Assembly (NCBI GenBank): GCA_000091205.1
Contig: AP006490.2
From: Cyanidioschyzon merolae
Lineage: Eukaryota
DNA: 64,000 nt
Strand: one strand, 5' to 3'
Part shown: in pieces, positions 1-22,077 of the stretch
Layout: each line of letters starts with the position of its first letter
How positions within the stretch are numbered: position 1 is the first letter of the stretch
The notes under the pieces: generated by a model
Told to the model about the DNA's origin: nothing
Database searches by the model: none
The model's input: only the letters and a program-made list of their open reading frames with translations
Position numbers and translations under genes: made by a program

Positions 1-786
1 ATGATGGACCAGGAGACATGGTTGCCTCCGCGCCTTCGATCGCCGAACATGGGCCTTCGTTTCCACACCCGCGATCTTGCAACCTATGGCGATGAGGCAG
101 CGGAGGATGCACGGGCACTGGCTTCAGCATCATCAGCAGCACATGGTAGCTCGAAAGCGCAGCTACCTCCGGCGTACGTGCTGTCCACAAGCGCACCAGC
201 ATTCGCTCTGCACGAGCGTGCCGGTGACGAGGCGGCTTCGCTGCCTGCTGCAGCCTCCGATGCCACCGCCAGGGAGCAGCGCACGCGCAGACTCGCACGA
301 CCCCGCCAGGACAGCTCCATGATGCAATCGCTCAGTGCGACACTGGAGCAGGCGCTGCAAACCGTCCAAGATTGTCAGCGAATGGAGCGCACGCCCCAGC
401 AGTCGAACGCTCAATGCTCCATCGCCTCCGGTGCGAGCCGCACATTCGTCGAGGGCAATCCAATGCTTGCCAGTTCGCCTGGTATGCTGGCAGACATTGC
501 TGCATGCACATCGAGCGCGCTGTACGATGCCGCATGGAATCCATTCGCCATTGAGGAGGCGGTAGAGCCCACGAACGCCTACATGTTGGGTGACGCTTCA
601 TCCAACATGCCGCACGATCCTGAGATTCCCGAAGACGATGCAGATATCGTGCCACCCGCTGTACCAAAGGCACCGACCACGGCTCTGGACTCAGGCGCTG
701 TGGCTGCGGCGAGCGCACCAGAGCCGGGCGGTTTAGCGAGCAATGTCCGAATATGGCCGTTTGCGGGCCAAGGACGCGGCCACTAA
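1..786 (+). CDS. hypothetical protein, 5'-partial at window edge (may be spurious)
   Basis: Open frame from position 1; Ala/Ser-rich, no recognisable motif; overlaps stop of convergent UTP25 gene by 3 bp. Confidence 0.2.
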   Translation: MMDQETWLPPRLRSPNMGLRFHTRDLATYGDEAAEDARALASASSAAHGSSKAQLPPAYVLSTSAPAFALHERAGDEAASLPAAASDATAREQRTRRLARPRQDSSMMQSLSATLEQALQTVQDCQRMERTPQQSNAQCSIASGASRTFVEGNPMLASSPGMLADIAACTSSALYDAAWNPFAIEEAVEPTNAYMLGDASSNMPHDPEIPEDDADIVPPAVPKAPTTALDSGAVAAASAPEPGGLASNVRIWPFAGQGRGH

Positions 787-2966
787 TCGCAAACGCGTGC
801 ACCGAAAGAAACTGGTGCCGGAAACTCGAACTCGCGACGCAGTTGATTCGCGGTGATGTATGCCATGCGCTGTGATCCGACAATGCGGTGCAACGCCAGG
901 GCATCATCTGGCATGATGAACAGCGTGCATGCTTGTCGGAAACTCGACCCAGAGGCTTCTAAACTCGCAACGAGCTCGGTGTAGAACTGGGGGAATTGAG
1001 GAACTCCGTAGAAGAAGATGTACTGGGAGCCTCGAAGATGATAGCGGCGATAGAAATGGAAACGCTCGGTAACGAGGAGGAAGCGTACGCGCCCTTCGAA
1101 GAAAAGCAGGCGATAGCGACTGATATCCTGAGGTTTGCTGTACTCGGAGCAGGCTGCGAAACTGAGTTTCGAGGCCGGGTAGACCGCTTGCTCTGTCCAT
1201 TTGCGGAAGAGGTTGCGCACCCGCACAAAATCGAAATACGAGGGAATGTAGATTAGAATGTGCGTGTGCGTACTCTGGACAAGTTTCGGTAACCAGTCGT
1301 GGGAAAACGCAGCAAATCGCAGCTCTGCCGCCTCCACCGCCGAAAGTGTGTTCGTTGCAGCGCCTTCGCGTCCCGACCCGGTGCCGTGCGGTGTCGCGAG
1401 CCGGCGGAACACATGACGGACTCGTCTGGGTGCTGGAATATCCGCGATCACCCCAGCGTGCCGTGTTCGAAGTAGTTTTAGCACGCCACTTACATTACCT
1501 TGGTGATCTCTTCGCGCTAGACGGAACCATGCATGGCATTCGGGAAAATCAAATGCCGACAAGAGAATATCCTGGCGGTAGGCCGCAGCGTGGTCTTCAA
1601 GAAAGCGCTGCTCCACTCGTGAAAAGTCTGTCTTTTGCGGCACCTGAGCCGGCATTCTGTTCACGGCCTCTCGCACAACGCGCAGCAAATGGTCCCAGTT
1701 CTGCATGAGCATCATATGCGACCGTAAAATCACCGCGATTTCAATACTGGAAAGTGGATCTGCTGCACCGCCTCGCATGCCGCCCTTGTCGGGATCGTCG
1801 AGCACACGCTGGAGGCCCAGCGGGGACACAACCACAAAGTCAGAGTCCGCGAAATCCGCGAAAAAGTGGAGGGATCGGCGCTCAACGCGAACCCCCAGAC
1901 GAAAGTCATCATCGATATTGCCTTTGAATGCGGCTCGGTGGTCGCGAGGTTTTGCACGCCAATGTCGAGCGCGGCTGGTATCTGCACCTGGATCAGGCAC
2001 CGGTTCCGTAGGCGGCACCAGTAAAGTGTTCGGCTCTTCGGAGACAGTCCCATCGTCTGCGTCGGGTCCGAATGCTCCCTCAAAGCGCTGCGCGTGCCCG
2101 ATCTGCCGTGGGTTCAGGTATCTGAGCACCGCAGACAGGAACGCATACGCTACCTGCCGGGTTGGCGCAAAGACAAGCACTCGAGCGCGACTGAGGCCCC
2201 GGTCACGGTACTGATCCCAGTCGTCGTCGACGACAGACGCACCCGGCCGCTGTGCCAGCTGCACATTGTGCTGCTCCTGTCGCGCCTGTGCCTGCAGAAT
2301 GTGCGCACAAGTGTAGGCCGCAACGATCTCCAGGTGAAGCTGCTCCTCGTCAACGGAATCGATACAAGCAAGCAGAACATCGGCCTTGGTAACGAGAGCT
2401 CGAGCGAAGCACAGACCGCGCTGCAGGAGCAGGTCGCGCTCTCCGTAACGAAAAGGCGCCGAGGCGGCAACGTCCCCGGCACTAGGATCCACCAGTGCCG
2501 CGAGGCGCCGCTGGAGCATGGGCGTAGCCGCCACCAGGTCTGGTATGGAGCATAGTCGACGCTGCGCCTCTTCATAACGTTTTCTGGTGACGTGTCCTTT
2601 CACAGCGGACGCAAAAATGTCCGGTGCATCCCAGGAACGGGCGTGCGCTCCAGTGACTGGCTCCGTGTCCATGCAGTTCGCCTCGCAGCGTTGCCACGTA
2701 AGGGCATCTTCCGTGGCGTCCGCCGCCGTGGGGCTCAAGCTCAGGTGCTCGCGTAGCATCTGGACGCTCAGGTGCTCAGAGGCGCTCTCCGGTGCAGGTC
2801 GCTGGCAAGTCTGGCGATCGGAAACAGACGAGCCTACGGTGTTCGCCTTTGAGGTAACACCACCAGCTTTCGTTGCTGTTTCGAAGGTCAGGGAGTCAGC
2901 TTCGTCGGCGCCGCGCTGATCGCCTACCACGACAGACGCCCGACGCTTCCCCGCTTCGGCGCGCAT
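783..2966 (-). CDS. UTP25: Utp25/DEF-like nucleolar SSU-processome protein (DUF1253)
   Basis: 727-aa ORF with ATG at 2966; motifs 'ILIYIPSYFDFVRVRNLF' and 'LLFFEGRVRFLLVTERFHFYRRY...FFYGVPQFPQFY' typical of Utp25/digestive-organ-expansion-factor family. Confidence 0.6.
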   Translation of the reverse strand: MRAEAGKRRASVVVGDQRGADEADSLTFETATKAGGVTSKANTVGSSVSDRQTCQRPAPESASEHLSVQMLREHLSLSPTAADATEDALTWQRCEANCMDTEPVTGAHARSWDAPDIFASAVKGHVTRKRYEEAQRRLCSIPDLVAATPMLQRRLAALVDPSAGDVAASAPFRYGERDLLLQRGLCFARALVTKADVLLACIDSVDEEQLHLEIVAAYTCAHILQAQARQEQHNVQLAQRPGASVVDDDWDQYRDRGLSRARVLVFAPTRQVAYAFLSAVLRYLNPRQIGHAQRFEGAFGPDADDGTVSEEPNTLLVPPTEPVPDPGADTSRARHWRAKPRDHRAAFKGNIDDDFRLGVRVERRSLHFFADFADSDFVVVSPLGLQRVLDDPDKGGMRGGAADPLSSIEIAVILRSHMMLMQNWDHLLRVVREAVNRMPAQVPQKTDFSRVEQRFLEDHAAAYRQDILLSAFDFPECHAWFRLARRDHQGNVSGVLKLLRTRHAGVIADIPAPRRVRHVFRRLATPHGTGSGREGAATNTLSAVEAAELRFAAFSHDWLPKLVQSTHTHILIYIPSYFDFVRVRNLFRKWTEQAVYPASKLSFAACSEYSKPQDISRYRLLFFEGRVRFLLVTERFHFYRRYHLRGSQYIFFYGVPQFPQFYTELVASLEASGSSFRQACTLFIMPDDALALHRIVGSQRMAYITANQLRREFEFPAPVSFGARVCD

Positions 2967-3149: not shown

Positions 3150-3842
3150 GCCATCGATCCTGCGTTCGCGAATCGCCACCGAGACGCCGCTGCGGTGACG
3201 TCGGCGGAAGCGCGCTGTCGGCTGGGAGCGTCCACAGGGACACGCACCCGTATCGCCTGGATCGCTATTGGGGAGTGTGGGTCATGGAACTTGGAGATAG
3301 AATGTGGAACGATAGCTGCTTTACCAGTTTCTAATACCAAACGCGCCATCGGAAATCCCCTGGTCTACTTAAACGCTCTTTCTACAATGGAGCGGTGCAC
3401 AAGCATCGCCTGGATCTTTTGGAGCGGCGATTCACTCGCTGGAGACCGCCACCGCCGTCGCGCGCCGGCAGCGCAGGCGTCCCGCGACTCCCGAAACTGC
3501 CTCGTGCGCTACATATTCTTTTGACCAAACGCGGCACTGAACGTCGTTCGAAAGAGGCGTCCTGTTTGACCGCGAACGTCGGGTTCTTGCCAGAACTTTC
3601 TCCCACGCTTAGTAGAACCGCAAAACGCTGTATGAACGCGTTGGTTGCGGTGTGCAGCGAACGCAGCGAGCGAAACTGGCGAACGCTTCGTACGAACATA
3701 GCGCTGGAGCGGGGAGTGCGGGTCTCGAAACTGCCGCGTTACCGGTGGCGATGCGCATGGACTTGCACGTGAACTGCCTGCTTGGAGAATAGACTATCAA
3801 CTACGGCTCTGATAAGAGAGAATCCGTTTCGAGTTTCACGTC

Positions 3843-5717
3843 ATGGAGCTGGGAGGATCTTCCGGACTCGTCAATATCGGAGGCGGTAGTGAAGATGCGC
3901 ACTACCGCTACAAGATGCCTCGCATCATGGGCAAGATTGAGGGCAGGGGGAACGGCATCAAAACAAGAATCGTGAACTGCTCCCAAATTGCCAAGGCGCT
4001 GCACCGGCCGCCGGGGTATATCTGCAAGTTCTTCGGCTGTGAGCTCGGAGCGCAGACCAAGATCAGCGATGATGAAGATGTATACATCGTGAACGGCGCG
4101 CATGATCAGAAACTGTTAGCCGACACGCTTGACAAATTCGTGCGGATGTTTGTTTTGTGTCCAAGCTGCAATATGCCGGAGACGGACCTCGTCATCGATA
4201 AGCGCGGCAACATATACCACGTCTGTAACGCGTGCGGTGCGCAACATCTCGTTGACATGAGCCACCGCGTGACCACCTACATGTTGAACAACCCCCCTGA
4301 TGGCGCTAGATCGAAGAAATCTGGCAAGTCGAAAAAGGAGCGGAAGGAGTCGAAGAAAAAGAAAGGGCACGAAAAAGGCTCAAATGTACACGAGGAGGCA
4401 CCGGATGCGGACGACGCACCTGATTCCGGAACGGACGGCAAAACGAAAAAGAAAAAATCGAGCAAGCGGCGAGATGGGGAAACAGAAGAGGCGTACCGCG
4501 AGCGCCGAGCGGCAGAGAAGGCGGCGCGTCGTCAGGAACGTGCTGCGCAAAAGGCTGGTGCGTCTGCTCCCTGGCACGCAAATGGAACCGAAGCGCTCGT
4601 TGCACCCACGGATTTGGACGCGTTGGCTCAAGAAGCGGAGGCCATGAACGCTGCACTGAATCAGAGACGTCGCCAGACAAATGCTACCGGCCAGGAGGAC
4701 TCTGAGCTGGACGAATCCGGTAGCGGCGATACCAGCCCGAGCTCACCAGCCGCTGCGCAGCCGCATGGATTCCCGTCTGATGCGGCTCAGCGGCACGCTG
4801 GCGATCGCGGCATGCGCACGGCATCCCACAAGTCCGGTGGGCATCTCGAGAGCGATCGCAATGCGTTGCGTCCAAATGGTGACCACCACTACAACGACGA
4901 TGACGACCATGAAGATGATGATGACGACGATGACGACGACGGCGAAGACCCGCAAGCAGACGGCGACTGGACTGCACACGACGATCAGACGACGTCCCAA
5001 ATGAAACTGGCGGCTGCGAGAGCAGCGGCGCTCCTGACCAATGCCGGAGTGAATGGCAACGGGGAATCGCCTCAGCGTGCCGTGAGCAAGACAACGTCGA
5101 AACTGGACGAACTGCACCTCGTCAGTAGCAAAGGAACAGTGCAACGCGCTACCACAGATGTGTCCGTGGACGACGAGAAGCTGGATCGTTTTGAAGCGTG
5201 GCTTCGCCAAGGTCACCATTCTCCCGCGTCCATTGCCAGCGAAGCGCGCAAATATTTCCCGAACGATAGCGCCAGTGCTGCGCAAGCGATCTTTTGTGCT
5301 GTTGTTGCGCACGCCGCGCATCCGGAATGCAGACCCGGAGAATCCCCCGCGCGGCACGCAGTGCACGCAGTCGATGCGCTGCGTGCGCTTTCGCTCAATC
5401 ACGCAGCACAGGCGCGCCTGTTGGATGCGTTCGAGGCATTGGCGGGGGTCGGATCGGACGAGGCGCGCAACCTAGCGCCCTCGGATGTGCAGCGTGGAGC
5501 CAAGCTTAGTCTCCAGAGTCGTCTGAATTCGATACCCCACATCCTGAAACTGTTTTATGATGAGGATATTCTGGATGAACAGGTGATTATCGATTGGTTT
5601 ACTCGGAGATCGCCAGGTTCATCGACCGCGGCGGGCGAGCGGGCACGGGATGCGGCCAAGCCGCTCGTTGAATGGCTGCAGCAACCCAGCGAGGCAGAGG
5701 ACAGTACTGAGGAATAG
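3843..5717 (+). CDS. EIF5: eukaryotic translation initiation factor 5 (eIF5)
   Basis: N-terminal 'YRYKMPRIMGKIEGRGNGIKTRIVN...KFFGCELGAQT...VLCPSCNMPETDL' matches eIF5/eIF2beta-type zinc-binding domain; acidic tract and C-terminal W2-like region; ATG at 3843. Confidence 0.9.
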   Translation: MELGGSSGLVNIGGGSEDAHYRYKMPRIMGKIEGRGNGIKTRIVNCSQIAKALHRPPGYICKFFGCELGAQTKISDDEDVYIVNGAHDQKLLADTLDKFVRMFVLCPSCNMPETDLVIDKRGNIYHVCNACGAQHLVDMSHRVTTYMLNNPPDGARSKKSGKSKKERKESKKKKGHEKGSNVHEEAPDADDAPDSGTDGKTKKKKSSKRRDGETEEAYRERRAAEKAARRQERAAQKAGASAPWHANGTEALVAPTDLDALAQEAEAMNAALNQRRRQTNATGQEDSELDESGSGDTSPSSPAAAQPHGFPSDAAQRHAGDRGMRTASHKSGGHLESDRNALRPNGDHHYNDDDDHEDDDDDDDDDGEDPQADGDWTAHDDQTTSQMKLAAARAAALLTNAGVNGNGESPQRAVSKTTSKLDELHLVSSKGTVQRATTDVSVDDEKLDRFEAWLRQGHHSPASIASEARKYFPNDSASAAQAIFCAVVAHAAHPECRPGESPARHAVHAVDALRALSLNHAAQARLLDAFEALAGVGSDEARNLAPSDVQRGAKLSLQSRLNSIPHILKLFYDEDILDEQVIIDWFTRRSPGSSTAAGERARDAAKPLVEWLQQPSEAEDSTEE

Positions 5718-5999
5718 AGGAAAGCATGACTCCACCGAAAGTGAATGCGAAAAACGGATCTGCAAGGAGCGTAAAACGATTGTCGACGGCTTGATTGCGG
5801 GTCGCGTGTCGCTGGCGCGCATTCCATATCCCGATATCCGTTCCGAGTCCGTGCAAAGCGCTGCGTTTGAGCATGTCATGGAGCGGAAGCGAGACACTTT
5901 TCATTTTGAGGCCGCTTATTCTCGATTCCCTACATAGACGAAGAGCGGTGATTCACGGTCTGTTTAGGTGATCGCGGTCCACGGATCGTCCCGGTCGCG

Positions 6000-8264
6000 C
6001 TAGTGACTGCGTTCGACACCGGCGAGGCGCTCAGCGAGACTGAGCGGACGCGGCGGCAGTACCGGCATCGTGTCGGGCGCCTGCGAGAGACGGGCGTATT
6101 GCTCGCTGTCCAGGCGTTGTTGTTGTTGTTGTTTCTCTTGGGCTTTGCGTTGTTCGCTCTCGCGCTGCTGTCGTGCTTGTTCTTTCTGCGCGAACGCAGC
6201 GGCGGTGGCGGCGAGGCGATCCCTTTGGATGCGACGGTACAAGCTGACTTGTTCACCAAGTCTCGGGATATTGCGTAGGAAATAGTCCTCTGGACGTTTG
6301 CCCGTGCGCGTTTCAAACACATCGACCATGCCGACGTCGTCGATAACGAATTCGGTGTCGTTCGTACCGATATATTCGCTGTCCATCGCAGTGCCAAGCG
6401 CGGGTGATCCGGAAGCAGAGGCGGTTGCGGCGCGATGCCTGAGCAGCGCCCGGTACTTGAGACAGAAAAGCGCAGCGAGCACTTGTTCGGTGCTGTGGTC
6501 CGCAGACCCGCCCAAACCTAGGTATTGTGAGAGCTTCTGTACGTCTATGGTGCGATAGATGCGTAGATAGGAGCTCAGCTGCGCAGGCAGACCTGATTCG
6601 CTCTGTGCAACTTGCTGCAGAAACACCTCACGACAGGTGTTCGCAACGCTCGGTTGCAGAAACTTGGGACACGCATGATTATAAAGTTCTTCGAAAGCAC
6701 TCAGATCGCCCTGTCGTATGCGCGTGGTGCGATCGCCGAGTTTTTCTCTCAGCCAACTGTTCATGGAATCGTCGAGACGGTTCCGCCCTAGGCACTGAGC
6801 TAACGAGAGGAGCGCAAGCATCTGATCAATCCGCTTGTTCACCTGTTCATATTGGAAGGATCGGACGTGGATATGTTTGGTGCGCGTGATGTGCACGATG
6901 GTCGGCTGCAACGCTCTAATCGCCTCCTCGTAGCGTCGAAGCATCAGCGCGCTGAATCCTATGTAGTAGTACACGGCTACATGGCAGGCGGTAACGTGGG
7001 TATGCAGCCGCAAACGGAGGTCTGTTGATTGCATGAGGCTGCCTTCGGTTCCCGCAGGCTCTGCGTTAGCGGCACTGGGGATAGGTTTTTCTCGCGAAGC
7101 CCTGGCAACTGCGGAAATGGTTACAGAGCGAATCCACTCGGTTTCAAATAGTGATGGAGGATCTAAAACTGAAAGCGCCGCGAAGAAATCTCCCGTGGCA
7201 CAGTGCAAGCGTAATAAACCGACCATCGCAAAATAACCGAGGTAGCGATACAGCAGCGAGTCGGCAGCCAGACAGCGTTCAGGGGCGAGTGTACCTAGAT
7301 CCTCATCCGCATCCGTTAGGCTCTGGTCTTCAGAATCGTTGGCCATGTCTTCTTCATCTTCTTCTGCAGCTCCAGGTGCACCGCGAAAGTCTTCAGCATC
7401 ATCCTCGTGGACGCCGATATTGTCAGGGCTCGCCTCCCCAGCTCCGCCCCCGGTATCTTTGGCAGTTTCCTCGGCAGAGTCGCCTCTTGCAGCCGGCGCG
7501 ATGGAGCCCGTAGCGGCTGTCGCTGCGCGTGCGCCCTCTGCTGTTGCTGTTGCTGCTGCTGCGTTATTCACCGATGCAAATGGGTAGTTGTCATCGGGTT
7601 TGGGAGCACCGACCGCTTCTCGCAGCCAGCCGACGATGCCACTCTTCTCTACTAGTGTACTCAGTATCTCTAGAGTTGTTCGGACATTCCACATCGAATT
7701 CATGTTCTCCGTTTCGAGCTCTTCAAGCGTGTGCCCATCTTGGCTTCGGGCGCGATACTGATGGTAGTCCTCAAACTGGTAGAGAAACTCGTCGATCAGA
7801 TCCCAGAGCCAGGAGGCTGGCAGCGCACACTCCTGCAGGTGCCCCTGGGCAAAATGCGCAAACAGAGCAAGATAGTTTGACCACGACTGGGACCTCTGTT
7901 TCAGGGTCGGGTGCAGCCTCATGTGCATATGTCTATATCCCAGTTCTTGGTAAAGCAGCATGAATAGCTCGATGTAACTAGGGGCATGCCCAGCAGCAGC
8001 GTTCGCCGATTCGTCGTCGTCGTCAGCTTCGGTACCGCGCTGCACCTTGGCCTCCAAATCTCGCAGTAGCTCACGCACAACAGATGATTGCGGCAGCAGG
8101 CAACTTTTGTAGAAGCGCTCAGCGATACGCGTGAAGCCACTCTCGTAGAGGCCGTGTACTGCCACGCTGTCACCGTCCACGAACTTGTTATAAAAGTTTA
8201 CCAAGTACTGCGATACCTCTTCGGGGAGCGTTGATTTCCGCGGATCAACGATTGTTTCAACCAT
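6000..8264 (-). CDS. EIF3L: eukaryotic translation initiation factor 3 subunit L (eIF3L), with an acidic insertion
   Basis: 754 aa; 'ALPASWLWDLIDEFLYQFEDYHQYR', 'YLGYFAMVGLLRLHCATGDFFAALSVLD', 'YYYIGFSALMLRRYEEAIRAL', 'CPKFLQP' align with human eIF3L; ATG at 8264. Confidence 0.85.
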   Translation of the reverse strand: MVETIVDPRKSTLPEEVSQYLVNFYNKFVDGDSVAVHGLYESGFTRIAERFYKSCLLPQSSVVRELLRDLEAKVQRGTEADDDDESANAAAGHAPSYIELFMLLYQELGYRHMHMRLHPTLKQRSQSWSNYLALFAHFAQGHLQECALPASWLWDLIDEFLYQFEDYHQYRARSQDGHTLEELETENMNSMWNVRTTLEILSTLVEKSGIVGWLREAVGAPKPDDNYPFASVNNAAAATATAEGARAATAATGSIAPAARGDSAEETAKDTGGGAGEASPDNIGVHEDDAEDFRGAPGAAEEDEEDMANDSEDQSLTDADEDLGTLAPERCLAADSLLYRYLGYFAMVGLLRLHCATGDFFAALSVLDPPSLFETEWIRSVTISAVARASREKPIPSAANAEPAGTEGSLMQSTDLRLRLHTHVTACHVAVYYYIGFSALMLRRYEEAIRALQPTIVHITRTKHIHVRSFQYEQVNKRIDQMLALLSLAQCLGRNRLDDSMNSWLREKLGDRTTRIRQGDLSAFEELYNHACPKFLQPSVANTCREVFLQQVAQSESGLPAQLSSYLRIYRTIDVQKLSQYLGLGGSADHSTEQVLAALFCLKYRALLRHRAATASASGSPALGTAMDSEYIGTNDTEFVIDDVGMVDVFETRTGKRPEDYFLRNIPRLGEQVSLYRRIQRDRLAATAAAFAQKEQARQQRESEQRKAQEKQQQQQRLDSEQYARLSQAPDTMPVLPPRPLSLAERLAGVERSH

Positions 8265-8809
8265 ATTTCCGATTCCTGACTACGATCCGGCAACGGGTGG
8301 CGTGCGAAGAAACCGAGTCGTTATGCTAGGAGCAAACTGATGGAAGCAGAGTTGCCCCAGTGCGTCGAAGTGCGCACAGTCAGGCAACCGAAAAGAACGC
8401 TCTCCAAGGAAACGCGTCTGTAACAGTCTCCGTCTACCCTAGCAACCGACAAACGTTCGCCAGGAACAAGTGCTTGTGAGCGGTATATCGCGAAACTCAG
8501 CGATGAGGCGAAGAGCGCAACGTCGACGTTGACTCCGAAGCATGCATCTCGCAACACGCAGCTCTCCCTGCGGCACATCGCGGCGCGCTACGATCATCCA
8601 AGTGGCAATGCAAGCGGGATCGCGCGGCGCGCGGCATGCCATCGCAGCGTCACGTGACACCTGAGGAAGGAAACGACGGCGCCTGACTCGGAGACGCTGC
8701 TGCATGCGTGCTGCGGCGTTGCTGTCCAAGCACGTGCGTGCAACGCAGTTTGTAGACACGAGGCAAGGCTCCCATAGTCTACCACTGCGGCAACGTTTTC
8801 ACTATCTTC

Positions 8810-11800
8810 ATGAGTGGTGCTTACCCAGGGCGTTACGGTAGTATGAGCCGCGGTGGTGGTACTGGTGGTGGTGGTGGTGGTGGTGGTGGCTACGGTGGTC
8901 ACCGCGGCCGTAACCAACGGTTCGGTTCGCGTTACGGCAGGCCGATCCTCAAGCCCGAGAACGCCCTGAACCGGGCAGAGCAGCTTCTGGCAGTGGGTCA
9001 AAAGTCTGCAGCTCACGAAGCGTTGTACACGTTGATAACTGAGCATACACCGATAAACGTCGGCGGCCGCGAAGCCCAAGCACTCGTCGCCCAGGCGCAA
9101 GCGCAAGCGCAGGCTGCTGCACAGGTGGCTGCGAACGCGGCTGCCGTCGCTCAGGAGCAGGATGAAGGCGGTGCTCGCAGCACAGCTGCTGCAGCTGCAG
9201 CTGCGGCCGCGGCCGCTGCCGCAGCTGCAAGCGCGATCCAGTCGTCAACCTCAGGCTGGAGCAAAGTCCACGAGGGTATCATGATGCGGCTGGTTGAGCT
9301 CAGCGTTGAGCTTCGCCGGCCACTGGCACTCAAGGAATCGCTACACCGTTACCGTGCGCTCTGCGGAGTCGCGAACACTGCTTCCCTTGAAGCCGTTGTG
9401 CTCCATGCAGTGGAGTGCTCTGAGGCGGCGGTGGACGCGGCAAGGACGCTGGCTATGGAGAGTTTCCACGCGAGCGCCGCTGCTCAGAGCCCAATTACGG
9501 AGGACGCTGGAGATGCGGAAGGCGACGGGAATGAACTGATATCCGAGGGCACGGACGACATCGTTGCCGATGAGGTTGCTGACAGCGACGACCGCGGCAA
9601 CGCCACCGACGACGATGCCCAGCCCGCATGGGGCGTTGAGGTGCCCCAAACGCTGCTGCTTGAGGCCAATGGTATGCTTGCGTCTCGCACACGAATAGAG
9701 AGACAGCTGCTCGCACCAACCCTTATGTTCGCATGGGAAGTTTTCCGCATGTGCCTGGATATTCTCAAAAATAATATTCGTGTAGAGAAAGCGTATAATG
9801 AAGTAGCAGAGCGAGCGCTGCTTTTCACGGCAAAGTTCAATCGGGCAACGGAGTTCCGCCGATTATGCGACATTCTTCGGCAGCACATGGCAGGTTTGGT
9901 GCGTACCATTGTGCGCTCGCCGCAGAGCGAGATCGACCAGGTTCATTGGCCGACCGTCCAGCGTATGATTCGGATCCGCTTTCAGCAGGCAGATCAAGCG
10001 ATGGCCAGTGGACACTGGCAGGAGGCCTATCGTACCATGGACGACCTGCATGAACTTTTGCGGATATGTACGCGAGGTCGCAGCCCTGAAATTTTGGCTG
10101 GTTACTTTGAGCGACTCGCAACTATCTTCGAAACGACTGACAATCTACTTCTGCATGCACTTGCGCTTTACAAGTTGTATCTGGTCCGGCAGGCTGCCGC
10201 AGAGGCTCTCCAGAACCAGGATCCGAACCAGGATGCGGACGGGCAGGTTCCAGGACCCTCGTCGGAGACGCCACGAGACACAGCAGTTCGACTTTTGGTG
10301 GCGACGCTTTCCATCCCCGTCAAGGAGCTCTCTGCTCACAGTAAGGTCATGGAAGTCTTCGCCGATGCAGCGACGCTAACGAGCTTTGAGCAGGCGCGTC
10401 AGGCCAAAATGCTAGACCTGTTGCAGTGGCCAAGCGCGGCCTCTGCGGGCTCGAACGAGGCATGGGATCGCTTGATTTCAAATCCAACAAAATCGTGGCT
10501 GATCGGAGAAGTTATATCCAATGGTATTGAGGAGGCGTGCCCTGAAGCGCTTCGCGAATTGTTGTACGAATTCATCGATCCGGGACTGCTCCGCTGGAAG
10601 CAAGCGGGCAAAGCTCGACTTGGAACGCCACAGTCGCTGGCTGCTAAGGCACAGCGCTGGTTCACCAGTATGCATCTTGACGTCGGTTCCGAGGTCGCCG
10701 GAGTTACTGGCTCAGGCGGTGTCGATGGCACCGGTGGCGACTGTACCGGGGCGGGCGCACCCAGCAGCAAACCTGGCCAGAGCGCACGTGCCTCCATGAT
10801 GCCGCTGAGTCGTGCCATCATTGCTGAGCTTTTGTTACGAATCGCTCAGTACTACGACAGTTTCTTGCTGTGGGAGCTTCGCTCTATGGTGAATTTCCTT
10901 CCGTTTGTGCAGGTGCATGCCATCGTGCTCGAATTTCTTCGAGCGGAGCTGGTCCCATTTCGCCTGGATTTCCGAAAGGGTGTCCTCTATCGCTTCTGCA
11001 GAACCATAGAACAGGAGGAGCTGGGCGATGCTCTTTGTCGCATTGCCACGCGCCTGCAAGCAGCGGCTAGCACCATCACACAGCGAGCATCCACAGCGGA
11101 CGAGCATGAGATCCGTATTCTGAACGCCAAAGAGGCAGCATTTCCGTTGGAGCGCTTGGAGAGAGAGCAGCAGCGGCGCGTGACGCAGTTGGAAGTGCTG
11201 CAGTCATTCCTGAAGCAACTGGATGAGGTTGCACAACGCATGGAACGCGAGGAGCAACGCCAAGCGCAGCTTGAGGCCGCAAGACACGCCGAGGAAGAAA
11301 AGCGGCGCCTCGCAGAAGAGGCGCGTCGTCGCGAGCTCGAAGCGATCCGGCGCGAAATGGAAGAGAAAGAGCAGGCTGAATTGCGGCGTCTGAAAGCTGA
11401 AATGGATGCACGCCGAAGAGTCGGCCTCTCAGCGAGTGGTGCAGCGGCTGGGCTTGCGCTGCCCTCAAGTGTTGCTGGGATAGAATCCACCGCCGCCGGA
11501 GCGTCCCTAGGAACCGTTGGTATCGGAGTGGATAGCGTGGGCGGGGCTGGCGGGCCAGCGCGAAGCGTCTGGAGTCGCAGCGGATCCGGGACAGCGGCCG
11601 TGCTTTCCGGTGCTCGTGCAACAAGCGCGCTGCCTGGTGTTGCCGTCGACTCTGTGCCGGGCATCGGTGCCGGTGCAGCAGATGGCTTCACGGCGGTTGG
11701 CGCCGATGCACTGGATCATGACGGTGATCGCCTCAGTCGACAGGAGCTTTTGCAACAGCAGCAGCAGGAGCGTCTCCAGCAACGCAAGATGCTCGAACAA

Positions 11801-12775
11801 AAGATATTCCAGCTGTCTCGTCGAATGGACTATTTGGATCGTGCGCTCCACGAAAAGCAGGCGACGCATCTGGATCAGGTTCACAAGGAAATGGTACGCG
11901 AATTGATTGCACGTCGGCAGTCGGCAGCAACCTGCCGTCTGCGTCAGCTGCAGGAGCAGTTTGAGAGCGATCTTGCACGCCGTGCGCGGCTGGAGAGCAT
12001 TTTTAGGGATCCGCTTTACCAGAAGGCTGTCGATCACATCAAAGAGGAGGCTCGGGCACGTGCACTGCGTGAGTGGAAGCCGCGTCAAGGCAACGGTTCT
12101 CCGAATCAACAGACGCCTATAGGCAATGTATCCGCAGAAGAAACCCCTGCAGAGCAGACACCTGGTCGCACAGCAGCAGCAGCAGCAGCAGCAGAACAAC
12201 AACGACAACAACAACAACCACGGAGCGACACTGGGTCCAATGGAGTGCCTGCTTCTGCGTACGAGGCAGCGGCGGAACATTCGCCGACAGCGACTGTCCC
12301 GTATCCCAAACAGGTGCCTCTGGCGGGTACACCCACTGGCAATACCGTGAGCGCGACTCGCTCGAGCGGCGATAACCACTCGGGGCCTGAGCGGCCGGTG
12401 CCACCCGCTGGAGAAACAGTCTCCGAACGTGAACAACAAGCGCGGCACGCACCTGCACCTGCACTTGCACCTGTAGCGCCCCGTTCTGGCATTGTGACGA
12501 TCGTTCACGCTGCGGACAAGGGTCTCCTCGGTGATCAGCCGTTTGTCACGCCATCCACGGCGACGTCAGCTGGAATCCCGGCCCCGAAAGCGACAGGAAA
12601 TGAAGAGTCGAGCCAAAGGCGTGGCTACGTACCGCCACACTTACGCCGTCAGCAACAGGCACCACAGCGTCTAGCTGCAAACCAAGAACCAGAGCAACGA
12701 GCAGGGCTAGGTGCCAGGGCCGGGCCACGGCGCGGTTTTGGCTTCACGGACTCGAATCCACGCCCGTCTTCATAG
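8810..12775 (+). CDS. EIF3A: eukaryotic translation initiation factor 3 subunit A (eIF3A), long low-complexity C-terminus
   Basis: 1321 aa; N-terminus 'KPENALNRAEQLLAVGQKSAAHEALYTLI' matches eIF3a '[28 protein letters not shown]'; PCI region; Gly/Ala/Gln runs; Glu/Arg-rich coiled-coil region. Confidence 0.85.
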   Translation: MSGAYPGRYGSMSRGGGTGGGGGGGGGYGGHRGRNQRFGSRYGRPILKPENALNRAEQLLAVGQKSAAHEALYTLITEHTPINVGGREAQALVAQAQAQAQAAAQVAANAAAVAQEQDEGGARSTAAAAAAAAAAAAAAASAIQSSTSGWSKVHEGIMMRLVELSVELRRPLALKESLHRYRALCGVANTASLEAVVLHAVECSEAAVDAARTLAMESFHASAAAQSPITEDAGDAEGDGNELISEGTDDIVADEVADSDDRGNATDDDAQPAWGVEVPQTLLLEANGMLASRTRIERQLLAPTLMFAWEVFRMCLDILKNNIRVEKAYNEVAERALLFTAKFNRATEFRRLCDILRQHMAGLVRTIVRSPQSEIDQVHWPTVQRMIRIRFQQADQAMASGHWQEAYRTMDDLHELLRICTRGRSPEILAGYFERLATIFETTDNLLLHALALYKLYLVRQAAAEALQNQDPNQDADGQVPGPSSETPRDTAVRLLVATLSIPVKELSAHSKVMEVFADAATLTSFEQARQAKMLDLLQWPSAASAGSNEAWDRLISNPTKSWLIGEVISNGIEEACPEALRELLYEFIDPGLLRWKQAGKARLGTPQSLAAKAQRWFTSMHLDVGSEVAGVTGSGGVDGTGGDCTGAGAPSSKPGQSARASMMPLSRAIIAELLLRIAQYYDSFLLWELRSMVNFLPFVQVHAIVLEFLRAELVPFRLDFRKGVLYRFCRTIEQEELGDALCRIATRLQAAASTITQRASTADEHEIRILNAKEAAFPLERLEREQQRRVTQLEVLQSFLKQLDEVAQRMEREEQRQAQLEAARHAEEEKRRLAEEARRRELEAIRREMEEKEQAELRRLKAEMDARRRVGLSASGAAAGLALPSSVAGIESTAAGASLGTVGIGVDSVGGAGGPARSVWSRSGSGTAAVLSGARATSALPGVAVDSVPGIGAGAADGFTAVGADALDHDGDRLSRQELLQQQQQERLQQRKMLEQKIFQLSRRMDYLDRALHEKQATHLDQVHKEMVRELIARRQSAATCRLRQLQEQFESDLARRARLESIFRDPLYQKAVDHIKEEARARALREWKPRQGNGSPNQQTPIGNVSAEETPAEQTPGRTAAAAAAAEQQRQQQQPRSDTGSNGVPASAYEAAAEHSPTATVPYPKQVPLAGTPTGNTVSATRSSGDNHSGPERPVPPAGETVSEREQQARHAPAPALAPVAPRSGIVTIVHAADKGLLGDQPFVTPSTATSAGIPAPKATGNEESSQRRGYVPPHLRRQQQAPQRLAANQEPEQRAGLGARAGPRRGFGFTDSNPRPSS

Positions 12776-12828
12776 TCGTCGTCGTCGTCGTAGAAAGTGC
12801 TTCTCTTGGGCGCTTTCCCTCGTTACGA

Positions 12829-13713
12829 CTAGGCGGCGTCACGTCGAAGCGATCTTCGCTCGGTCTGTGCCATGAATCCCTGTCGAATCGGAGCCACCGA
12901 CCGAGAGGAGCCGCAGTTTTCGCACTTCATAAAGTAGAGCCGCGTATGGGCATCGCGCATGAGCACGGTCTCGGGGCTCTTGCAACTCGCACACATGACG
13001 TATTCGCGGATGTAACGCCGCAGCACACCCTCGAAACCAGCGGGCTGGAATCGCCCTTTGAGAACCAGACGGGCACTCTCCTGCAGATTCCCGGTGGTGC
13101 CGAGCTCAGCGGCCATGTAGGCTGCCAAGTGCTCCGGTTGTCGACGCAGTGACTGGCATATATCCCCAAAATTAAGGAAAACGGTACGCTTGGAGCCTTC
13201 TCGTGCAATCTGCGGAGGTCGTAGCGATAAGCGGCGACGACCGTCCGGGTTCCCGCCCAGACCCGGGTGCCGTCCGTGGAGCATGTCGAAGATGCGGCGA
13301 AGGAGCTCGTCGTAGGTGTAGTCACGATCCGTACCTTGCCACGGCTCCGCTGCCTCCATATTGTTTTCATGGCTAACGCTGCTGCTGGACGTCGTGATGG
13401 TGCCTGCGTTCACCGCTGTCCCGCTGTCGACAGGCGACGCCGCTCGATCGCCGTCGGATTCGACCTGGAAGTGCACGTGCCGTTCTGTCGGAGCCTGTTC
13501 CGAGTCAAGCGCAGTTGTCGTATCCCCGGCATTCGTTCCTTGTTCTACAGGTTTCTTCTTCTTCTTTTTCTTCATCGATGGGTCGAACAGCAGCGGCTCC
13601 GCTGTGTTCAAAGCAGCAGCGGTGTCCGCAGTTGCGCCGGCGCCAGTCGACGCGGACACCTCGGCAAGGTTCCCGCTCGACTCCTGGAAGGCACCATTTT
13701 CATTCGGGGGCAT
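12829..13713 (-). CDS. EIF2S2: eukaryotic translation initiation factor 2 beta subunit (eIF2-beta)
   Basis: Lys box 'KKKKKKKP'; 'YTYDELLRRIF...RPPQIAREGSKRTVFLNFGDICQSLRRQPEHLAAYMAAELGTTG...LKGRFQ'; C4 zinc finger 'CASCKSPET...CENCGS'; ORF track starts at TTG 13824, first ATG (MPPNENG) at 13713. Confidence 0.85.
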   Translation of the reverse strand: MPPNENGAFQESSGNLAEVSASTGAGATADTAAALNTAEPLLFDPSMKKKKKKKPVEQGTNAGDTTTALDSEQAPTERHVHFQVESDGDRAASPVDSGTAVNAGTITTSSSSVSHENNMEAAEPWQGTDRDYTYDELLRRIFDMLHGRHPGLGGNPDGRRRLSLRPPQIAREGSKRTVFLNFGDICQSLRRQPEHLAAYMAAELGTTGNLQESARLVLKGRFQPAGFEGVLRRYIREYVMCASCKSPETVLMRDAHTRLYFMKCENCGSSRSVAPIRQGFMAQTERRSLRRDAA

Positions 13714-14134
13714 GTTAGACGTCCAGGTGCACGTTTGGAAAACTGCTATCGAGACTTGCGGAAACGCCTGCACCGCAGTAAGCAGCTCTGTTTTTCCTCG
13801 CAGAACGCGTAGCGTACAGCGCAAAGCGTCAGCGCGGCGGTGGATGCGGCGGTGGCGGTGGCGGTGGCGGGCGCCCCGCCAGTGTGTGTGTGTGTGTTTG
13901 TGGGTGCTACCTGGGAGCCGAGTCCTAGTGTTGACTCCCGGGCATCGCTGTGACGATGTTTACCATGAAGGTTGTGATTCCTGGAATATCTATAACAGGG
14001 CTGGTGCTTGCCTCCGATAGTTTTTTCTCGATGGTATGCCCTCAAAGGAGCATATCGTGTAGACTGGGGTACCGCCATGGGGAAGCTGGATGCTAGAGCT
14101 GCTCTCTAGAATAAACCGAACTATTTTTTGATTT

Positions 14135-14969: not shown

Positions 14970-15629
14970 ATGGACCTAGAGAGTGAGTGGCGAGAAAATC
15001 CACACGAAACTGCGCGGTTCGAAGTGCTGCTCGAGCGCGTACTCGGCAACGGCACTGACTCGGACACTGTGACGACTCCTGAACCGTCGTTGAAGGTACC
15101 AGCTTCCTCGTTGCGGTTGCAGCTGGCTCCACAAGCTGGCGAAAGACTTGACTGGGAATCAGAGGCGGACGCTGCACACCACAGAGGAAACGAGGCGTTT
15201 CGCGCGCGTTTCCTGTACTACGCGTGGCTCGAGTACACCCGTGCGTTGCTCTCTAAACCAACGAACGCAGCTGTGTATGCGAATCGAGCGCAGGTAGATT
15301 TGCTGCTGGCACAATCCGTTCCCGAACATTCGCTATCAACTGCTGTTGACTGGTACCAGCAAGCGCGGCGAGACGCACGACACGCGTGGGGTTGCCTCGG
15401 CGGGAGCGTTACCGCTGAAGGCAACCCTGACTGGGACGAGCGCTCTGCCACCGCGTCTATCCCTGAACCCAAACTAGCCCGTTTGCGATGGAAGGTGTGT
15501 TTACGGTACGCAGCAGCGGCTCGCGGACTAGGTTTGGTGGCTGAGGCAGACGCCGCAGCTGCGAGCGCCCAGCGCCTGAAACTTGCTGCGCGAGCGTCTC
15601 AGCAACGACAGCGAAACGCAAGCTTCTAG
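14970..15629 (+). CDS. TPR-repeat protein (function unknown)
   Basis: TPR consensus in 'AAHHRGNEAFRARFLYYAWLEYTRALLSKPTNAAVYANRAQ'; ORF track start 14901 is GTG, first ATG at 14970. Confidence 0.35.
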   Translation: MDLESEWRENPHETARFEVLLERVLGNGTDSDTVTTPEPSLKVPASSLRLQLAPQAGERLDWESEADAAHHRGNEAFRARFLYYAWLEYTRALLSKPTNAAVYANRAQVDLLLAQSVPEHSLSTAVDWYQQARRDARHAWGCLGGSVTAEGNPDWDERSATASIPEPKLARLRWKVCLRYAAAARGLGLVAEADAAAASAQRLKLAARASQQRQRNASF

Positions 15630-17429
15630 CGTATGGAAGAGCGCTGCGAATGGGCCGTTTGCTGATCCAGCGAAACCTGGTTGCATCTGCCGAAACCCAG
15701 ACGGCAACGCGTGACTTGACTCTTGCGATACCCCGAGCTGTGGATGAGGTCTGGGATCGCGTGCTCAGGATTCGTGTCAGTGGCGGCGCTTGTGTGCGAC
15801 ACGTGTGGACGCGCATCTGAGCATACTCGTGAAAGGCAACTGGCACAGAGAGCCCAGCTCGGCACCTGGCGAAGACTAATACCGCCGTCTCCGCAAGTCG
15901 TCGATGTGCCTTTCCTGGTATCAGCGAACGATACAGCGGTTTGCAACGCCTTCAAGTCCATGCATTGTACATGTATGCCGCACGGTGCAGAGTAGGATAG
16001 CCTAGTATTTCACGAGTTTGTTGCCCGACGCCGTCGATACCGACATGACTTTATATCGTGCGAGGACGTGCACCCGAACCTGCGGATTCTTGGCGAGGCC
16101 ATACCGCCGGTGTCAAGGCCCGCGTCATCGCCTGAGGCCGTTCGGTATGCGCTGCGACAGGTGTTGGCGGGATCATAGATCATTTGGGAGCACACGTCTT
16201 TCCATCCACATTCCGAGTGCCATTCCATTGATCAAACGCTATGAAGGAATAGAGTCGATGCTTCGATCAAGAATAACCGAGTATGCGGGCGCTCTCAAGC
16301 AGCAAGCAGTACATGACAGCGTACGCGCCAACTGCGCGTCTCGAATGGCTGCGTACCGAAGCTGTCGGCAGGAGGCGGTCGTGCCGCGATACCCGCGATT
16401 CCGGTCTATGGTCGCCGCCGTTGCCTTTTGGTGCCAAGTGCGGTGCCTCTAGCTGACACGTGCGTCCCGAAGACCCTGGTTCAACGCATACGTTACAAAA
16501 CCGAAAAAATTGGTAGGTTTCGCACCGCCACCAACGGCTGGTCGCTCGTTGGCTTCACCAGGGCCGCACCACGCGCTCAGTTGGCCACCTGCACCGAGGC
16601 CTCGGACGCTCACGAGCGCTCGGAAACGCTTCGGAGGAGCTGCTCTTCTCAACAGTTGACAGAGGGGCTTGCGAACTGTGCGGATGCAGTTATGTGCTTG
16701 TTTCCTACGCGAGTTGCTTGCGTGCGCGTGACGGAGGCGTTCTGTCACGGACACGGCGGGTTTTACCCGGCCGCAGCGCTGCTCGACCAAATCGTCGCAC
16801 TGATCGAAAGATGGCAACCCGGCTCGAAAGCAAACTTGCGAGGCGTCAACAGCCTGGTTGGTGGTTCACCCACAGGCACCTCGTGGACCGCTGAGGCTTC
16901 GTTGGTTGACAACCCCCAAACCGGGGCCCGGAGCACCGCGGTCACCTGCTCTCGGGGAAAGCGGCCGCTACTCCCCGAACGTATCAGTTCGGCAAACACC
17001 CCGTTTGAACTCGTGCAGGCACGCTTTCGGGAGATCGTACGACCACCATGTGATCTGGTTTTACGAATTGAGCGACACGAGGACGGTCCGCGAGGTCGCA
17101 TGGTATTCGTGACGGCTCGTAGCGCGTCACGACTAGTCGCGGATGTATGCTTCATGTTGCCCGCAGGGTCAGCGTAGAGCGTCATGCAATCCTCCAGGAG
17201 GAGCGCTTTGGTGTACGCGCACCAGCTGCTGCACGTGCACAAGGCGAGCAGCTGTTTCATCTGCGCATATAGCACTGAGGCCAAGCTCCTGGCCCGATGC
17301 ATAGAGCATGCGTATCTCTATGTCAGCATTGGGGTTGCTGCACGCCCTGGACACGCCATCACGTAAAAGCGCCTGTTCTGAATGGTGCTCGCTATGGCTC
17401 TGCTACCGTAATCGCAGTTCCCCGGTAGC

Positions 17430-21654: not shown

Positions 21655-22077
21655 CTACGACGCAGAAGTCTTTGTTTCAGATCGGAGTCGTCCCAGTTCA
21701 TGTTTGATGAGCTGGCTGCGTCGCTTCCTTGCAACCATCACGCGAAACCGATCAAAGTCGGTTAACCGGGCACGCACTCGTTGCTTTTCAACCTTTTGAC
21801 CCCATGCAGTTTCCCGGAAACGCTGCACAGCCTGCTGCGCCTCAAGAGCTTTCCGTACGACGCTCGTTTTGCAAGCACGAGGCAACTTAACGACCACGTC
21901 CGTCAACTTCAAGCGCTTCACGTTGATGACCGTACGAGGGACTCCGGAGTCGGCCGTGGCATCAATCACAACATGACCCTGATCCTGGATATCCACGATA
22001 ACACAGATCTTGTCAGCATGCTCACCGTAGCTGATAATACACAGTCGGCCAACTTCCACAAACCTTTTGAAAGCCAT
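21655..22077 (-). CDS. RPL14: 60S ribosomal protein L14e (eL14)
   Basis: 'MAFKRFVEVGRLCIISYGEHADKICVIVDIQDQGHVVIDA...RARLTDFDRFRVMVARKRR' aligns with eL14 (MVFKRFVEIGRV...KMTDFDRFKVMKAKK). Confidence 0.9.
   Translation of the reverse strand: MAFKRFVEVGRLCIISYGEHADKICVIVDIQDQGHVVIDATADSGVPRTVINVKRLKLTDVVVKLPRACKTSVVRKALEAQQAVQRFRETAWGQKVEKQRVRARLTDFDRFRVMVARKRRSQLIKHELGRLRSETKTSAS

Follow-up and report, generated by a model that had tools for sequence, protein, structure and literature searches.

Four adjacent translation initiation factor genes in Cyanidioschyzon merolae and a gene neighbourhood shared within the Cyanidiales

In the red alga Cyanidioschyzon merolae 10D, genes for the translation initiation factors eIF5, eIF3L, eIF3A and eIF2beta stand in a row on chromosome 8, within a window of 64,000 nucleotides (contig AP006490.2 of assembly GCA_000091205.1) that is the whole stretch of DNA analysed here and that supplies the coordinates used below. 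To our knowledge, eukaryotic initiation-factor genes are normally scattered over the genome. On balance we favour, at somewhat better than even confidence, a reading of the run as four separately transcribed housekeeping genes in one Cyanidiales-specific neighbourhood, kept mainly by inertia and controlled gene by gene. This grouping of genes with related functions, specific to the Cyanidiales, is apparently unreported: literature searches for an earlier description of the cluster, for initiation-factor adjacency or for the four locus tags found none.

Gene identities and layout of the cluster

The original prediction had called the four genes from the DNA letters, and all the coordinates and all four calls hold, the calls against Pfam, PDB and the genome annotation, in which CMH058C–CMH061C are consecutive (gene orders 1065–1068). 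The adjacency and the gene identities are real, and the predicted sizes of the divergent spacer and of the stop-to-stop gap are likewise confirmed. The features of the locus are:

783–2966, minus strand: UTP25 (CMH057C); Pfam UTP25_NTPase-like 1e-58, Utp25_C 3e-46
3843–5717, plus strand: eIF5 (CMH058C), 624 aa; Pfam PF01873 5e-34 (117 bits) and W2 2e-15 (57 bits)
5718–5999: eIF5/eIF3L spacer, tail-to-tail, 282 bp
6000–8264, minus strand: eIF3L (CMH059C), 754 aa; Pfam Paf67 4e-91 (306 bits), PDB eIF3l 4e-68
8265–8809: eIF3L/eIF3A spacer, head-to-head, 545 bp
8810–12775, plus strand: eIF3A (CMH060C), 1321 aa; Pfam eIF3a_PCI_TPR-like 5e-70 (237 bits), PDB eIF3a 2e-46
12776–12828: eIF3A/eIF2beta stop-to-stop gap, tail-to-tail, 53 bp
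12829–13713, minus strand: eIF2beta (CMH061C), 294 aa; Pfam PF01873 2e-36, PDB EIF2S2 2e-54
14970–15629, plus strand: CMH062C, hypothetical protein, head-to-head with eIF2beta; orthologues found by tblastn

The two PF01873 paralogues are clearly told apart by PDB searches, the closest matches of the first being eIF5 chains (3e-61 versus 3e-9 for eIF2beta) and those of the second EIF2S2 (2e-54 versus 1e-10 for eIF5). The ATG of eIF2beta is codon 38 of the mechanical open reading frame 12829–13824, and its product carries a C-terminal C4 zinc ribbon, visible in the sequence as CxxC...CxxC. Three N-terminal lysine boxes of eIF2beta bind the W2 domains of eIF5 and eIF2B-epsilon; in the N-terminal 130 residues of the C. 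merolae protein there is one obvious lysine run (KKKKKKK). The predicted eIF3L is identical over 754/754 residues to XP_005536041.1/BAM79755.1, and its identity is also backed by named homologues in the protein search. This gene was first annotated as 'similar to PAF67'.

Coding sequence fills 91% of the cluster, the spacers measuring 53–545 bp; scanning the full 64-kb window with Rfam and for tRNAs returned no matches, so no RNA gene is hidden in the spacers. It is flanked by UTP25, a small-subunit processome and ribosome-biogenesis gene that lies head-to-head with eIF5. Related genes stand side by side, as here, in bacterial and archaeal translation operons and in nematode and trypanosomatid polycistrons, but an operon or polycistronic unit is ruled out for this cluster: the strands run eIF5(+), eIF3L(-), eIF3A(+), eIF2beta(-), and this alternation makes a common transcript impossible and requires a separate promoter for each gene.

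Distribution across lineages

The block YAK1-UTP25-eIF5-eIF3L-eIF3A-eIF2beta-CMH062C has the same order in C. merolae and in three other Cyanidiales lineages, namely Cyanidiococcus (L001), the L002–L004 lineage and a Cyanidium-like contig (L008, 67% GC). In L001, L002 and L008 the position of UTP25 is identical, and CMH062C, the last gene of the block common to the four lineages, adjoins eIF2beta (tblastn). These comparisons span considerable protein divergence: eIF3L of the L002–L004 lineage is 58% identical to that of C. merolae and 66% to that of Cyanidiococcus, while eIF3L of the Cyanidium-like contig is 45% identical to the C. merolae protein. Unlinked orthologues in close relatives had been named beforehand as the result that would speak for chance adjacency; the synteny comparison found them linked. 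About 86% of genes are collinear among three Cyanidiales genera, and synteny with Galdieria is weak (PMC9812998). Conservation within the Cyanidiales therefore carries little weight, since the background collinearity predicts it, and linkage confined to the Cyanidiales does not exceed background synteny in the way that would mark a selectively maintained cluster.

Outside the Cyanidiales the arrangement was not encountered. In Galdieria sulphuraria, the nearest outgroup, the locus tags of eIF3A (Gasu_19990), eIF3L (Gasu_27420), eIF2beta (Gasu_27750) and eIF5 (Gasu_49330) are distant from one another; these tags come from a proteomics supplement, and tag numbers rather than coordinates indicate that the cluster is absent there. 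Searches for eIF3L homologues gave 7 matches with the full query, which was swamped by low-complexity inserts, 31 with a trimmed query and 6 with a profile query, and none of the three recovered a Galdieria protein. In none of 32 non-cyanidialean eIF3L loci (19 distinct; 483 kb of flank) does eIF5, eIF3A or eIF2beta occur within 10 kb of eIF3L. The count of 0/19 distinct loci bears out the expectation that such an adjacency is unusual for a eukaryote.

Spacers and promoter signals

Neither of the two distances that had been pointed out, 545 bp in the divergent spacer and 53 bp between the convergent stop codons, is out of the ordinary here: convergent gaps elsewhere in the window measure -4, 44 and 100 bp, and the remaining divergent spacers span 100–1907 bp. 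Among relatives, the eIF5/eIF3L spacer is 176–212 bp, as against 282 bp in C. merolae, and two of them have eIF3A/eIF2beta gaps of 25 bp and 42 bp, as against 53 bp. No conserved k-mers were found in the convergent spacers across relatives. For the eIF3L/eIF3A spacer, the Cyanidium-like contig has about 318 bp, Cyanidiococcus 539 bp and the L002–L004 lineage 1476 bp.

This last spacer had been proposed as a bidirectional promoter for two subunits of one complex. In its favour, the start codons in C. merolae are 545 bp apart, within the <1 kb typical of mammalian and yeast bidirectional-promoter pairs, which are likewise head-to-head; the candidate is weakened by the 1476-bp spacer of the L002–L004 lineage. 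The case for a promoter shared by the two genes is weakened further by the one conserved element in the spacer, which keeps its distance to eIF3A and not to eIF3L. The pair differs from the mammalian and yeast pairs in its 1.5-kb spacer in one lineage and in an element placed by one gene; its two mRNAs co-vary weakly (r = 0.29) in a small data set of narrow dynamic range. The element is located as follows:

8649–8659: GTCACGTGACA, palindromic G-box/E-box-like element, 151–161 bp upstream of the eIF3A ATG
8649–8658: GTCACGTGAC

It is the only k-mer of at least 9 bases common to the orthologous spacers of three lineages (GTCACGTGACA); its 10-mer occurs exactly once per locus (16–22 kb each), always upstream of eIF3A, and the copy at 8649 is the sole exact one in the 64-kb window. 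We regard this CACGTG palindrome as probably eIF3A's own promoter-proximal control element. Of the CACGTG cores mapped over the 64 kb, none lies upstream of the ribosomal-protein genes. The motif search that had been suggested for the cluster gave nothing common to the four promoters: no shared k-mer rose above shuffled controls, hence no shared cis-element was seen.

Upstream open reading frames of eIF5

The leader of eIF5 contains two upstream start codons:

3632–3772, plus strand: uORF1, 46 codons; AUG context CGCUGU AUG A (U at -3, A at +4), poor
3757, plus strand: second upstream AUG (CGC AUG G), start of a short, overlapping uORF with its end at 3792

About 190 bp of the leader can be aligned across three lineages, the rest of their intergenic DNA being unalignable. 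In 4/4 lineages uORF1 is 46 codons long and the second upstream AUG lies at -86/-88, while the C-terminus of the uORF1 peptide, RYRWRxxWTCT, is kept in three. The main AUG of eIF5 is in good context, and uORF1 is the longest of the uORFs. Upstream AUGs in poor context, with uORF1 longest, are near-universal in eIF5 leaders (PMC3326321). The autoregulatory uORFs of eIF5 described by Loughran et al. 2012 (PMC3326321) resemble those found here in having the longest uORF first, an AUG with U at -3 and no G at +4, several upstream AUGs and a good main AUG; the version known here from sequence differs in being Cyanidiales-specific, with a fixed length of 46 codons and a lineage-specific peptide. On this likeness, eIF5 is probably autoregulated at translation through conserved poor-context uORFs.

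Expression

Expression was compared in one small data set of 9 samples from 3 strain/ploidy states, in which changes were at most 1.4-fold. Levels of mRNA were 143–215 for eIF3L, eIF3A and eIF2beta, that is, within about 1.5-fold of one another, versus about 720–900 for eIF5. Across the 9 samples and 3 states, with their narrow dynamic range, the correlation between eIF3L and eIF3A is r = 0.29, and eIF5 is anticorrelated with eIF3L, eIF3A and eIF2beta; eIF3L and eIF2beta reach r = 0.87, across only three strain/ploidy states. Correlated expression of the four genes, which had been suggested as a check, did not appear as a common pattern in these limited data. Several initiation-factor genes are differentially expressed in a nickel-stress supplement, none of them among these four, a result too weakly informative to use. 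Any co-regulation of the four genes is loose at most, and none of these results shows regulation as a unit.

Chance expectation and nearby translation genes

For a total of 4,775 genes, of which about 32 code for initiation factors by our own estimate, the expected number of runs of four is 8e-6 per genome by calculation and 2.5e-5 by simulation, and the expectation is still about 1e-3 once roughly 100 gene classes are allowed for. Within one genome the run is unlikely to be chance, subject to this look-elsewhere caveat. The further translation genes that the original prediction named downstream are all real, and MRP-S28, like UTP25, is an addition to that list:

21682–22077, minus strand: RPL14e
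22330–23022, plus strand: organellar S15
29147–31003: GTPBP1-like GTPase
32710–33606: RPL5
35551–36507: MRP-S28
from 62133 onward: CysRS

Translation genes make up 11 of about 24–29 genes in the wider window (binomial 1e-5 to 1e-7, calculated post hoc), an excess that hints at non-random organisation. Only two eIF3 subunit genes are inside the cluster, with others on chromosomes 3 and 17.

Origin and retention of the arrangement

On the favoured reading, with the four genes controlled separately and held together mainly by inertia, a single origin in the Cyanidiales stem, after its split from the Galdieriales, is most likely. It would then have been retained, probably mainly by inertia, through genome compaction. 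Since the tiny spacers are made up of divergent promoter regions and convergent 3' ends, a rearrangement could break the cluster almost nowhere without harm; in yeasts, intergene distance is reported to be the strongest predictor of synteny retention (PMC2258174). Co-regulation would be loose at most, amounting to similar steady-state mRNA of eIF3L, eIF3A and eIF2beta and an active neighbourhood shared with UTP25 and YAK1, and fine control would act gene by gene, on eIF5 via its uORFs and on eIF3A via the CACGTG palindrome. Inertia accounts for retention and not for origin, so selective help when the cluster formed is possible.

Pure coincidence, a random rearrangement in the Cyanidiales ancestor that draws attention only because many genomes and gene classes are implicitly scanned, strikes us as unlikely. 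By rough estimate, about a thousand gene orders times about a hundred classes at 1e-5 would yield roughly one such run; the expectation for this genome is nevertheless 8e-6, or about 1e-3 after roughly 100 classes. Coincidence would agree with the search for regulatory signs of a unit having found none, and with the absence of the cluster from every examined lineage outside the Cyanidiales, but it sits less comfortably with the flanking UTP25 and the window's excess of translation genes. The same low chance expectation of 8e-6 per genome would suit a selected co-expression module, in which one chromatin neighbourhood and bidirectional promoters balance the dosage of multifactor and 43S components and selection keeps the cluster together, a reading that we hold to be unlikely. 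Physical association is consistent with it, as eIF5 binds eIF2beta directly and eIF3a and eIF3l belong to one complex, but just two eIF3 subunit genes are in the cluster. The mRNA levels of eIF3L, eIF3A and eIF2beta agree within about 1.5-fold and eIF3L follows eIF2beta (r = 0.87), but in the same small data set eIF3L and eIF3A correlate weakly (r = 0.29) and eIF5 runs opposite. Although the block's neighbours UTP25 and the YAK1 kinase are also growth- or ribosome-related, and adjacent co-regulated pairs of ribosome-biogenesis and ribosomal-protein genes are known and conserved elsewhere (PMC3500266), the four promoters here share no cis-motif, the supposedly bidirectional spacer is unconstrained in length (545 versus 1476 bp) and its sole conserved element tracks eIF3A alone, and conservation is no higher than background collinearity, with the cluster absent in Galdieria.

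The PF01873 domain is common to eIF5 and eIF2beta, and eIF3a, like eIF3l, is a PCI protein, so the ancient tandem duplications that made these paralogues could have left the linkage behind as a relic; the N-terminal domain of eIF5 and the C-terminal domain of eIF2beta do cross-match (PF01873). This candidate was rejected as scarcely credible: the duplications predate the last eukaryotic common ancestor, the paralogues are not adjacent, with eIF5 and eIF2beta at opposite ends of the cluster, and neither Galdieria nor any of 19 further distinct lineages has the linkage.

Known systems compared and significance

In the gene pairs of Arnone et al. 2012 (PMC3500266), as here, translation-apparatus genes are adjacent, often head-to-head and conserved between species, a pattern that the UTP25/eIF5 pair fits directly. 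Those cases differ in being mostly pairs and rarely triplets, in comprising ribosome-biogenesis and ribosomal-protein genes and in their demonstrated co-expression, whereas the C. merolae cluster has four initiation-factor genes in a row and is known here from gene order. [quoted passage not shown] 2007, PMC1955436) is similarly compact and functionally linked, with short spacers and mixed orientations, but is made up of gene families whose expression is coupled to replication; the initiation-factor cluster holds four different functions, only anciently related domains (PF01873, PCI) and constitutive expression.

A bolder possibility, which we consider doubtful, is that YAK1-UTP25-eIF5-eIF3L-eIF3A-eIF2beta is a selected growth and translation-initiation chromatin domain peculiar to the Cyanidiales, in which gene order sets multifactor dosage via head-to-head promoters and overlapping convergent 3' ends. 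If true, the domain would be a eukaryotic counterpart of a translation operon without being an operon itself. Genes can be relocated experimentally in C. merolae, which has some 4,800 genes, hardly any introns and efficient homologous recombination. The conserved uORFs would extend the feedback design of eIF5 on start-codon stringency to early-diverging red algae. Stable over deep Cyanidiales divergences, the four-gene run offers a clean natural case for relating gene order to dosage balance in multi-protein complexes; if the arrangement is neutral, it would exemplify how genome compaction alone may freeze a functionally suggestive gene order.

Gene identity and annotation

The four initiation-factor ORFs of the original prediction lie exactly where they had been placed, in a window of ~57% G+C with long intron-free ORFs on alternating strands. 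Their identities are backed by Pfam scores far over the cut-offs and by top matches to solved structures, as listed here together with their upstream neighbour.

Features of the cluster (Pfam assignments; top solved-structure match in brackets)
783-2966, -, UTP25, ribosome-biogenesis factor, upstream neighbour of eIF5
3843-5717, +, eIF5: eIF5/eIF2beta domain (PF01873) and W2 domain (eIF5, 3e-61)
6000-8264, -, eIF3L: Paf67/eIF3l domain (eIF3l, 4e-68)
8810-12775, +, eIF3A: eIF3a PCI/TPR-like domain (eIF3a, 2e-46)
12829-13713, -, eIF2beta: eIF2beta domain, PF01873 (EIF2S2, 2e-54)

The solved-structure search cleanly separated eIF5 from eIF2beta, which both carry PF01873, and the window eIF3L is identical (754/754) to C. 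merolae 10D XP_005536041.1/BAM79755.1 on a 739,753-bp chromosome. Canonical eIF2beta has three lysine boxes, the docking sites for the W2 domains of eIF5 and eIF2B-epsilon; here the N-terminal third holds one evident lysine box (KKKKKKK).

CMH056C-CMH066C, including the cluster, are consecutive rows in published expression tables: CMH056C (YAK1 kinase), CMH057C (UTP25), CMH058C (eIF-5), CMH059C (eIF3L; at first 'similar to PAF67', later 'eIF3 subunit E interacting protein'), CMH060C (eIF3 subunit 10/A), CMH061C (eIF-2 beta), CMH062C (hypothetical protein), CMH063C (SURF1), CMH064C (guanine nucleotide exchange factor-like), CMH065C (RPL14) and CMH066C (mitochondrial ribosomal protein S15). As CMH058C-CMH061C are listed under these names, the four genes themselves were already annotated. 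Our literature search found no paper on the cluster or naming these locus tags; the genes are known, and neither the cluster nor its conservation seems to have been described before.

Distribution across lineages

Unlinked orthologues in close relatives had been proposed as the sign of a chance adjacency. On contigs encoding eIF3L relatives, the order C2-domain protein/YAK1-like kinase/UTP25/eIF5/eIF3L/eIF3A/eIF2beta/CMH062C-like is instead kept in three other Cyanidiales lineages: Cyanidiococcus yangmingshanensis (L001; eIF3L 58% identical to C. merolae), a hot-spring metagenome lineage (L002-L004; 58%, and 66% to Cyanidiococcus) and a Cyanidium-like contig of 67% G+C that fits Cyanidium caldarium (L008; 45%). 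In the last, synteny ends one gene past eIF2beta, with an ABC transporter in place of the SURF1 side.

Provided that Galdieria locus tags follow scaffold order, no two cluster genes are adjacent in Galdieria sulphuraria 074W. The tags are Gasu_19990 (eIF3A), Gasu_27420 (eIF3L), Gasu_27750 (eIF2beta) and Gasu_49330 (eIF5) (PMC8252106, proteomics supplement). Outside the class, the tblastn search (E <= 0.01) covered 483 kb of DNA around 32 eIF3L loci, each flanked by 5 kb or more; counted at 85% nucleotide identity, 19 of them are distinct. Matches to eIF5, eIF3A, eIF2beta, UTP25 and SURF1 were absent from the flanks of all 32, in line with the view that the arrangement is unusual for a eukaryote. 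Given the shared order in three relatives, the separated tags in Galdieria and the 0/32 outside, the cluster is therefore Cyanidiales-specific, and its origin is most simply dated to the Cyanidiales stem lineage.

In compact algal contigs from outside the Cyanidiales (L010/L011, L094, L092/L093), the neighbours of eIF3L are translation-related too: a Dim1-like rRNA adenine dimethylase and RPL32e, each head-to-head with eIF3L, and GCN1 6 kb off. Anecdotally, this agrees with the pairing already described for ribosome-biogenesis and ribosomal-protein genes.

Chance expectation and compactness

C. merolae has 4,775 nuclear genes (PMC1955436). The expected number of four-gene initiation-factor runs per genome is 8e-6 for ~32 cytoplasmic initiation-factor subunit genes (our estimate) and 2e-5 for 40, and simulation gave 2.5e-5. 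With the class broadened to 250-450 'translation' genes, the expectation becomes 0.03-0.37 runs of four, or 0.002-0.03 runs of five if UTP25 is counted. Within this genome the adjacency is beyond chance level; taken over every sequenced eukaryote and functional class, one such run somewhere would not be astonishing.

Translation-related genes appear over-represented in the window, at 11 of ~24-29 genes vs ~2-3 expected. The set comprises UTP25, eIF5, eIF3L, eIF3A, eIF2beta and MRP-S28, along with RPL14e, organellar S15, a GTPBP1-like GTPase, RPL5 and CysRS, the further translation genes that had been named before and are all counted here. RPL14e and S15 are head-to-head across a 252-bp spacer.

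The cluster is 91% coding vs ~55% for the window. Its 545-bp divergent and 53-bp convergent spacers have the predicted sizes and are not special to it: other convergent pairs in the window are separated by -4 bp (YAK1/UTP25, whose stop codons overlap by 4 bp, an overlap kept in relatives), 44 bp (DEP/RPL14e) and 100 bp, and divergent spacers measure 100-1907 bp. Short head-to-head spacing and overlapping 3' ends are thus general to the genome rather than cluster features. Orientation alternates near-strictly (+ - + - + - + ...) over 1-23022, from YAK1 through S15, and a published survey found gene orientation in C. merolae to be non-random (PMC2871058). At 23600-26600 lies a gene-free stretch that is unusually long for this genome (~3 kb, lower G+C of 0.49-0.52, strong AT skew, no ORF >144 aa). 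No Rfam families or tRNAs were found in the whole window.

Expression and candidate regulatory elements

All four genes are expressed in two public tables, at ~720-900 mRNA units for eIF5, ~142-211 for eIF3L, ~186-215 for eIF3A and ~138-191 for eIF2beta, with neighbouring genes at 64-166. The correlations among the four genes, proposed as a check, differ in sign. Over nine samples (diploid MS1, haploid MS1 Ha3 and haploid 10D), eIF3L and eIF2beta correlate at r = 0.87, eIF3L and eIF3A at 0.29, and eIF5 with the other three at -0.69 to -0.85, all within changes of <=1.4-fold, a range too narrow to decide. The data do not point to one co-regulated unit. Further eIF3 subunit genes lie at other loci (CMC064C, CMC106C, CMQ285C), so the cluster alone cannot balance eIF3 stoichiometry.

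Comparison of orthologous eIF3L|eIF3A spacers left a single common k-mer of at least 9 bases, the palindrome GTCACGTGACA (8649-8659), which three lineages carry 115-160 bp ahead of the eIF3A start codon. Its 10-mer has one copy per cyanidioschyzonacean locus (16-22 kb), and a back-of-envelope estimate puts the chance of a three-way match at ~1e-4; L008 retains the half-site alone, GTCACGCATC. The palindrome is a candidate bHLH/bZIP-type binding site. Since its distance to eIF3A is kept even where the spacer, the proposed bidirectional promoter, is enlarged to 1476 bp, it seems to belong to eIF3A and not to both genes. No k-mers common to all four promoters exceeded shuffled expectation.

Upstream of eIF5, ~190 bp are alignable across lineages.

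Features of the eIF5 leader
3632-3772, +, upstream ORF of 46 codons; AUG context CGCUGU AUG A, U at -3
3632-3792, +, span of conserved leader features

The upstream ORF has exactly 46 codons in 4/4 lineages (C. merolae, L001, L002, L008), three of which keep its C-terminal peptide RYRWRxxWTCT. A second upstream AUG at -86/-88 (CAC/CGC AUG G) is present in all four, and the main AUG is flanked by a purine at -3 and a G at +4. In a survey of eIF5 mRNAs across eukaryotes, uAUG1 starts the longest upstream ORF; 98.8% of these uAUGs have U at -3 and none has G at +4, a design leading to eIF5 autoregulation via start-codon stringency (PMC3326321). The Cyanidiales leader matches this design, which is known from animals, fungi and plants.

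Other ORFs in the window

Additional ORFs and repeats
16692-17177, +, ORF of ~160 aa
27690-27952, +, 75-bp repeat array
57008-57206, reverse orientation, 75-bp repeat array
60930-61122, +, 75-bp repeat array

The first has no Pfam match; L001 and L002 each carry a syntenic orthologue, 37-40% identical over 165 aa. As published tables list no locus tag between CMH062C and CMH063C, it is possibly a conserved gene missed by the annotation. The 75-bp (25-aa) tandem unit occurs in 2.6-3.5 copies per array; all three arrays lie within ORFs lacking Pfam matches, so the ORFs may encode a small family of paralogous repeat proteins.

Origin and maintenance of the cluster

The cluster is best read as a neighbourhood specific to this lineage and made up of separately transcribed genes. 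It would have arisen in one event and then been frozen by genome compaction, as breakpoints in spacers of 53-545 bp, taken up by promoters and 3' ends, would be harmful; in yeasts, synteny retention is predicted most strongly by intergene distance (PMC2258174). Expression would be controlled gene by gene. Selection for co-expressed growth genes may plausibly have helped the cluster to form, as the run is improbable by chance and the window seems to hold an excess of translation genes, and paired ribosome-biogenesis and ribosomal-protein genes (PMC3500266) offer a model for such co-expression at its origin. The cluster belongs to a known kind, the functional neighbour clusters of compact eukaryotic genomes. 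It makes a neat curiosity and a case that lends itself to testing, and nothing found here points to a new mechanism.
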